Part shown: positions 9,969 through 10,688 of the stretch, one piece after another | Layout: every line of letters begins with the position of its first letter | Numbering within the stretch: position 1 is the stretch's first letter | Virus record (IMG/VR): IMGVR_UViG_2693429677_000014 | Coordinates: 1 to 10,757 of that record | Source of the DNA: a virus | Lineage: Duplodnaviria > Heunggongvirae > Uroviricota > Caudoviricetes | DNA: 10,757 bases | Direction: 5' to 3' (one strand) | Position numbers and translations under genes: made by a program | Notes under the pieces: generated by a model | Databases searched by the model: none | Seen by the model: only the letters and a program-made list of their open reading frames with translations | What the model was told of the DNA's origin: nothing

Positions 9969-10688
9969 AGCTCACACACTGGTTCAGGCCGTCCAACCGG
10001 TTCAGGCCAGAGGAGCAAAACCGTTTGTCGCCTGTGCCAGCGCATTAATGAGGTCATGACCTATGCCCAAAACACATGGCTGATTGATGCTGTTCCCAGC
10101 GTTAATATTGGTAAAGCCTTCGAGAAGCCTCAGTAAAAGAACATGCCCAGCATTCGACCGGATCAGCTACCTCAACTGATGCAGACAATGCGAACAGCCA
10201 GCATTAGCCTTTCCACACGCTGCCTGTTCATGTGGCAACTTCTTACTATTACCCGCCCTGCCGAAGCGGCTGAAGCTCGCTGGGAAGAGATAGACATAGA
10301 AGCACAAGAGTGGAAGATTCCTGCAGCACGCATGAAAACGAACCGCGACCATACTGTTCCATTGTCAGATGAAGCAATTGCGATACTGGAGATGATGAAG
10401 CCGTTAAGTGGAAATCGAGAATTTATCTTTCCCAGCCGCATCAAGCCAAACCAGCCGATGAACAGTCAGACCGTAAACGCATAGCTAAAACGCGCAGGTT
10501 TTGGTGGGGTGCTCGTTTCACACGGCCTGCGATCTATCGCCAGTACAGCCCTTAATGAACAAGGCTTTCCGCCTGATGCCATTGAGGCAGCACTTGCCCA
10601 TGTAGACAAGAATGAAGTTCGTCGCTCTTATAACCGCAGCGATTACCTGGAGCAGCGTCGTCCAATGTCAACGACGGATGAAAAGTGA
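9969..10688 (+). pseudogene. P4-like (IntA family) tyrosine integrase, 3' portion only, with two in-frame nonsense codons (TAA 10134-10136, TAG 10482-10484)
   Basis: Frame-0 translation: ...AQNTWLIDAVPSVNIGKAFEKPQ*KNMPSIRPDQLPQLMQTMRTASISLSTRCLFMWQLLTITRPAEAAEARWEEIDIEAQEWKIPAARMKTNRDHTVPLSDEAIAILEMMKPL...[64 protein letters not shown]..., paralleling the P4 Int C-terminal domain (HGxRS box, catalytic Tyr region); N-terminal part absent at the IS911 boundary. Confidence 0.7.

Follow-up and report, generated by a model that had tools for sequence, protein, structure and literature searches.

Features of the window

The window, by which we mean the whole 10,757-bp stretch of DNA that was analysed, consists of prophage DNA, a defective insertion sequence, a fragment of an integrase gene and the end of a second insertion sequence (Table 1). 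Nucleotides 1-8687 are thrW-associated prophage DNA. Several ORFs located beyond the GmrSD-type ORF and before the ParA-like ATPase gave no Pfam match. The short copy of the thrW 3' end, the only tRNA fragment present, belongs to the prophage side of IS911; it is the att junction where two prophage units meet in tandem, and indicates tandem integration at thrW. Scans of the window with ARAGORN and Rfam detected no whole tRNA, no tmRNA and no other RNA family, and no cognate att gene for the integrase fragment is present.

A previous, sequence-only reading of this locus had described all recombination functions at this end of the window as degraded. For two of them this is accurate: the xis-like gene has been beheaded, and the IS911 transposase is inactivated by an orfB frameshift. 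The description does not extend to the thrW prophage integrase, which is full length and identical to its annotated counterpart in CP027550. The island from which the integrase fragment comes is not that of the thrW int and xis genes, and the adjacency of the two is secondary, via one defective IS911 copy. The fragment is therefore unfit for defining the boundaries or the mobility of the thrW prophage DNA to its left, which has its own intact integrase.

Table 1. Coordinates of features in the 10,757-bp window
Feature	Position	Strand	Comment
Prophage DNA	1-7291		Baseplate and tail genes, GmrSD-type ORF, ParA-like ORF
GmrSD-type ORF, 649 aa	1823-3772	-	GmrSD_N and GmrSD_C domains; type IV restriction-like defence gene; left prophage unit
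ParA-like ATPase	5699-6544	-	Left prophage unit
thrW (tRNA-Thr) 3'-end copy	7292-7337	+	46 nt
Lambdoid tyrosine integrase, 386 aa	7352-8512	-	Intact; 100% identical to annotated gene beside thrW in CP027550
xis-like helix-turn-helix gene	8389-8687	-	First 16 of 115 codons lost to IS911 insertion; thrW prophage
IS911-type IS3-family element, defective	8688-9938	+	1251 bp; ends TGTAGTGGCACA...TTGACCACTACA
Integrase remnant, piece 1	9939-10017	+	Codons 142-167 of 413; part of central Phage_int_M domain; frame +1 from 9940
4-bp deletion site	10017/10018	+	CTGG gone from between GGAGCA and AAACC; nucleotide alignment
Integrase remnant, piece 2	10017-10665 (identity to 10667)	+	Codons 169-385; frame +3; end of central domain and catalytic domain
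Nonsense codon TAA	10134-10136	+	Lys208 AAA to TAA relative to intact allele; in frame with catalytic domain
Nonsense codon TAG	10482-10484	+	Ser324 TCG to TAG relative to intact allele; in frame with catalytic domain
113-aa ORF	10143-10484	+	ATG directly after TAA, ends at TAG
59-aa int/IS100 fusion ORF	10509-10688	+	Found on one other contig only
IS100 (IS21 family) end, istB-proximal	10666-10757	-	Terminal 92 bp; identical to annotated IS100 ends

Extent and lesions of the integrase fragment

To map the lesions, the fragment was compared with the intact 413-aa allele of strain PS10-3, a gene that is located directly downstream of the tmRNA gene ssrA and shares 96.7% DNA identity with the fragment. 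By tblastn, residues 142-167 of this allele align at 9940-10017 with 25 of 26 residues identical, and residues 169-385 align at 10017-10667 with 206 of 217 identical. The frame changes from +1 to +3 between these two pieces because CTGG is missing at the boundary. The DNA of the first piece was also aligned against the E2348/69, RM14723 and PS10-3 alleles, and the 4-bp deletion is common to those of E2348/69 and RM14723.

At the left, codons 1-141 have been removed at the right end of IS911 (9938/9939, between codons 141 and 142), so that the arm-binding domain (PF13356) is gone and the central domain is incomplete; a loss of the N-terminal part at the IS911 boundary had been proposed before, and is borne out. 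At the right, identity to every integrase allele ends at 10667, and the last 28 codons, whose native tail reads MQWWTNFVQAADRGSIIEGGMKGMRLVG, are gone. The window copy is an internal fragment of 244 codons with three internal lesions, the 4-bp deletion, the TAA and the TAG, which together with the IS911 and IS100 truncations makes five. The two in-frame stops had been read correctly, as had the N-terminal loss, but that earlier list of three lesions missed the frameshift and the 3' truncation by IS100. Similarly, the span of 9969-10688 first given to the remnant captures the integrase region but neither of its ends, the true start being 9939 and the true end 10665-10667. The first 16 codons of that span (9969-10016) were out of frame owing to the unnoticed deletion, and its last seven codons, STTDEK and the TGA at 10686-10688, derive from IS100 and not from the integrase.

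Family assignment and active site

When translated conceptually with the stops masked, the fragment matches Pfam Phage_integrase (PF00589) with E=9.5e-37 over profile positions 3-170 of 172, and the NCBIfam model NF007246/PRK09692 over model positions 142-385 of 413 with 541.8 bits against a cutoff of 434. These matches, and that to the integrase of satellite phage P4 described below, agree with the initial view that the catalytic region of a P4/IntA-family integrase is readable here. The central domain, PF22022 Phage_int_M, is partly there (profile positions 36-91 of 96, E=7.7e-9) and is broken by the 4-bp deletion. The arm-type DNA-binding domain (PF13356, DUF4102), which occupies residues 8-95 of the intact allele, has no counterpart in the window, IS911 having taken the place of codons 1-141. 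A sequence search of the PDB yielded structures of CP4-like integrase arm domains and central domains only, and no catalytic domain.

Five motifs are readable in the second piece and align with P4 Int: those containing the Arg (TITRPAE), the Lys (MKTNRDH) and the Tyr (RRSYNR), together with HGLR and LAH. The residues concerned are catalytic in the tyrosine integrase family. The TAG codon splits these motifs and the complete set is found on no single ORF; with Arg-Lys-His-Arg-His-Tyr distributed in this way, we infer that no recombinase could be made. The label P4/IntA-type is therefore correct for the remnant, but as a functional member of the family it fails, because its active site is split, its arm domain is missing and it has no adjacent tRNA or tmRNA gene. 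Nothing that we found contradicts the reading of this fragment as a pseudogene, and we give a probability of about 0.93 to the reading that the EspC-island integrase gene, a tyrosine recombinase of the CP4-57 IntA/P4-like type, survives at window 9939-10665 as a relic without function.

Distribution of the allele and loss of constraint

Over 727-729 nt, the fragment matches the corresponding DNA of E2348/69, RM14723 and ten further loci (12 in all) at 100% identity; these are independent assemblies that include several separate E2348/69 assemblies and long-read genomes. All 12 carry the same TAA, the same TAG and the same 4-bp deletion, and RefSeq annotates the loci as 'integrase domain-containing protein; frameshifted; internal stop; incomplete'. 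Comparison across strains therefore upholds the two stops as real, in E2348/69 as in the 11 other loci, and they are not sequencing errors because the same alleles occur across many strains; they are fixed alleles. For the alternative that the stops and the frameshift are sequencing or assembly errors in what is a working integrase gene, no support was found, and we regard it as next to impossible given the identity of the lesions in 12 independently assembled loci and the further loss of 141 N-terminal and 28 C-terminal codons through IS elements.

Relatives of the fragment are present in 258 of 5426 complete E. coli genomes. The allele itself, at 99% identity or above, occurs in 20 of the 5426 and is a pseudogene in every row among the matches listed, and alleles of 90-99% identity occur in approximately 230, nearly all of them annotated as an intact 'integrase'. 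Plasmids in PLSDB contain no copy of the integrase fragment. With intA as the outgroup, the branch leading to the window allele has eight non-synonymous changes, both stops included (R172C, I183T, G189W, K208stop, M276T, S324stop, V356A and A372S), versus one synonymous change, in addition to the deletion, whereas the branch leading to the intact PS10-3 allele has three non-synonymous and four synonymous changes. The pattern of substitution on the remnant branch fits what would be expected from loss of constraint.

The perfect conservation of the fragment does not point to function: across the same strains, the adjoining 6.7 kb of island DNA, other pseudogenes included, is likewise 98.7-100% identical (99.8-100% in all comparisons but one). 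Selection as the cause of this conservation was considered and rejected, since flanking island DNA is conserved equally. Translation of the 113-aa ORF between the two stops may in principle occur, and its exact sequence is found in 1456 blocks of the assembly collection. Minus-strand ORFs also lie within the integrase fragment, for example at 10172-10444.

It has to be weighed whether the fragment is kept because one of its sub-ORFs functions, either the 113-aa ORF or the 59-aa int/IS100 fusion ORF, and an example of such a role would be a dominant-negative or DNA-binding peptide acting on a related intact IntA at ssrA. We consider both the general proposal and this particular role very improbable. 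The 113-aa ORF does begin with ATG, and many assemblies carry it without any change, but this conservation equals that of flanking pseudogenes and intergenic DNA, and the allele-specific changes stand at eight non-synonymous to one synonymous. An intact IntA with 90% amino acid identity does adjoin the fragment in some strains, but neither ORF has a complete active site or the DNA-binding arm domain, and the fusion ORF is found on one other contig only. Under the relic reading, the fragment would be inert and would persist as hitch-hiking DNA between two insertion sequences.

Assignment to the EspC island at ssrA

The EspC island is expected to carry espC, which encodes a SPATE autotransporter, and espG/virA-like genes some 3-8 kb downstream of its integrase. 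In 12 of 12 other loci the allele is followed, at a distance of approximately 3 kb, by espC and a gene with an EspG domain, and ssrA lies upstream of the remnant, within the stretch read, in most of the 12. From this shared context, the remnant is assigned to the ssrA/EspC pathogenicity island. A review (PMC7545054) places the EspC island, 15.2 kb long, at ssrA and lists an integrase and five putative transposases among its genes. In the reference genomes, ssrA is separated from the allele by an IS21-family element, an intact intA or an inserted prophage.

Gene order in intact loci is ssrA, int and then the island. Since ssrA is to the left of int in these loci, the cognate att of the remnant would be expected on that same side, where IS911 has taken its place. 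It had been suggested that this att be looked for further right; what lies there is IS100, and ssrA is 5' of int in intact loci. The cargo of the EspC island is absent from the window, which stops 92 bp into IS100. The idea of a decaying island whose cargo is retained can be kept for the EspC island generally, but not for the DNA in the window, which is thrW prophage and not the remnant's cargo.

A defective IS911-type element at two loci

IS911 elements are approximately 1250 bp long with TG...CA ends, carry orfA and orfB with an A6G slippery site, and duplicate 3 bp of the target on insertion. The IS911-type element in the window has both ends and orfA, and shares more than 99% identity with copies that carry the annotation IS3-family transposase. 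Its orfB is frameshifted by a quasi-palindrome change of +2 bp at 9325-9333. The clustered change falls within 9296-9339, where GTCAGTTGCCAGCAGCCTG has become GTCAGTTCTTTCATGAGCCTG with +2 bp and four substitutions, and it makes a perfect 18-bp inverted repeat (AGGCTCATGAAAGAACTG / CAGTTCTTTCATGAGCCT) out of what was an imperfect palindrome. From its form this looks like a quasi-palindrome template-switch mutation. An origin of the change as an assembly artefact was considered and rejected, the variant recurring at two loci across eight or more other assemblies. In orfA, position 8868 has T for C, which gives Ser to Phe in GL(S/F)TMTRW, and the assembly collection lists this OrfA variant in 169 blocks.

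In other assemblies, this 1251-bp IS911 variant is located at both thrW and ssrA, and therefore a transposition-dead IS occupies two loci. In the window it is flanked by CTA (8685-8687) and AAT (9939-9941), with no 3-bp target-site duplication, while simple insertions of the same IS911 in xis read CTA/IS/CTA (loci L023, L029, L031 and L032). Because the two flanks differ, the window IS911 joins two different insertion sites. In three genomes of environmental E. coli, LR778142 (locus L011, 8548-9796), LR778146 and LR778152, IS911 is inverted relative to the window at the same junction with the integrase fragment, which implies IS-mediated inversion.

The join between thrW prophage DNA and the integrase fragment

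The complete thrW-IS911-int joint was found in none of 5426 complete E. coli genomes, the best coverage being 76%. Its left half together with the IS is present at 100% identity in CP148268, and the IS together with the right half in CP039403. In genomes that have both half-junctions, these are approximately 2.3 Mb apart in the same orientation. In the closest genomes the IS copies are directly repeated, so that one reciprocal exchange between them would split the chromosome and would not be viable, and therefore a real join needs a prior inversion or duplication.

The join in the window is either a private rearrangement mediated by IS911 or an assembly misjoin. We give about an even chance to an assembly chimera across a collapsed repeat, considering that the joint is in no complete genome among those searched, that its halves are found in different genomes, and that these halves lie in an orientation in which one exchange would split rather than invert the chromosome. 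The flanks, CTA/IS/AAT, lack a target duplication, and other assemblies carry the same 1251-bp variant at both loci, the kind of repeat arrangement that leads assemblers to misjoin. However, in finished genomes the IS911/AATTGGCG junction is found with at least three other sequences on its left, namely the 3' end of intA, an arm-domain fragment and an inverted IS911, and real IS911-mediated exchange is therefore common there. Furthermore, the source strain differs anyway, with an extra thrW prophage unit and the IS100 insertion, and a real join could come from segmental duplication or an earlier inversion. That the window records a genuine large exchange between thrW and ssrA, by homologous recombination across the dead IS911 and either as an inversion that followed an earlier flip or as a join created by a duplication on the megabase scale, is a tentative reading to which we give somewhat less than an even chance. 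In synteny analysis, the IS911 bridge should be treated as a possible point of misassembly or rearrangement.

The IS100 end

From position 10666 the sequence (TGTCAACGACGG... / TGTCAACGACGGATG...) is that of the istB-proximal end of IS100, and 10666-10757 is identical to three annotated IS100 ends that were read base by base and are located in unrelated flanks. The int/IS100 junction is ambiguous by 2 bp (TG). It is found on one other contig only, JOQR01000063.1 of GCA_000714185.1 (locus L021), which differs from the window by two SNPs and has a complete IS100 after the same junction, with istB of 260 aa and istA of 340 aa. The exact junction is absent from GTDB species-representative genomes and is in no complete E. 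coli genome. If this is a simple insertion of IS100 into the EspC island, then a target duplication of 4-5 bp in the CCAATG region would follow, then ATGCAGTGGTGG... and then espC.

The DNA just outside the IS100 end is alike in four unrelated insertions (loci L005, L006 and L007, and window 10659-10665), the outer flanks reading CGTCCAA, CGTCTCAA, CGTCCAG and CGTCAAA, each before TGTCAACG. This likeness may reflect an IS100 target preference.

Decay of the integrase gene

Each lesion is directly visible in the window, and we infer from the way in which other copies share them that they arose in the order internal lesions, IS911 and then IS100. In a first step, the gene would have acquired the 4-bp frameshift deletion and the two nonsense mutations, which are common to all copies including that of E2348/69. 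In a second step, codons 1-141, comprising the arm-binding domain, the start codon and the promoter side, would have been lost at the IS911 junction along with the adjoining ssrA att; this junction is common to RM14723, 2015C-4136CT1, 382634_2f and others. In a third step, restricted to the window lineage, codons 386-413 would have been lost to insertion of IS100, at a junction that is otherwise found only in GCA_000714185.1.

The remnant is an ordinary pseudogene that is already known and is annotated by RefSeq in EPEC genomes. It agrees with the textbook picture in which pathogenicity islands become fixed as the integrase decays and insertion sequences erode the ends. The set of internal lesions is a handy lineage marker for the EspC island, and the IS911 and IS100 junctions subdivide that lineage.

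Comparison with known integrases and islands

The closest known counterpart of the window copy is the EspC-island pseudogene of EPEC O127:H6 strain E2348/69 (RefSeq locus E2348C_RS29220), which is 100% identical at the DNA level over 9939-10667 and has the same deletion, TAA and TAG. It differs in that it retains codons ~17-141, with an extra TGA and a 1-bp deletion there, as well as the native 3' end, and in that its 5' end abuts an IS21-family element, whereas the window copy is cut by IS911 at codon 141/142 and by IS100 at codon 385. The IS911-truncated form found in RM14723, 2015C-4136CT1, 382634_2f and related genomes has an IS911/AATTGGCG junction and internal lesions identical to those of the window. 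Copies of the RM14723 type retain the native 3' end, followed by espC, at ssrA, while the window copy has IS100 instead. To the left of IS911, the partner in RM14723-type copies is an intact intA or an arm-domain fragment, whereas in the window it is the xis gene of the thrW prophage.

Intact integrases of the CP4-57 IntA type, those of PS10-3 and RM14723, have 95% and 90% amino acid identity, respectively, over codons 169-385 and the same order of domains. Unlike the broken internal fragment in the window, they are complete ORFs of 413 or 396 aa located directly downstream of ssrA. The integrase of satellite phage P4 (NP_042035) is 31% identical over 260 residues (E=5e-44), with the motifs TxxR, K, HxxR, H and Y aligned. 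It shares the arm-binding, central and catalytic architecture of the family, but it is a distant relative, and the window copy is dead. P4 integrates at leuX, whereas the lineage of the window remnant has ssrA as its site.
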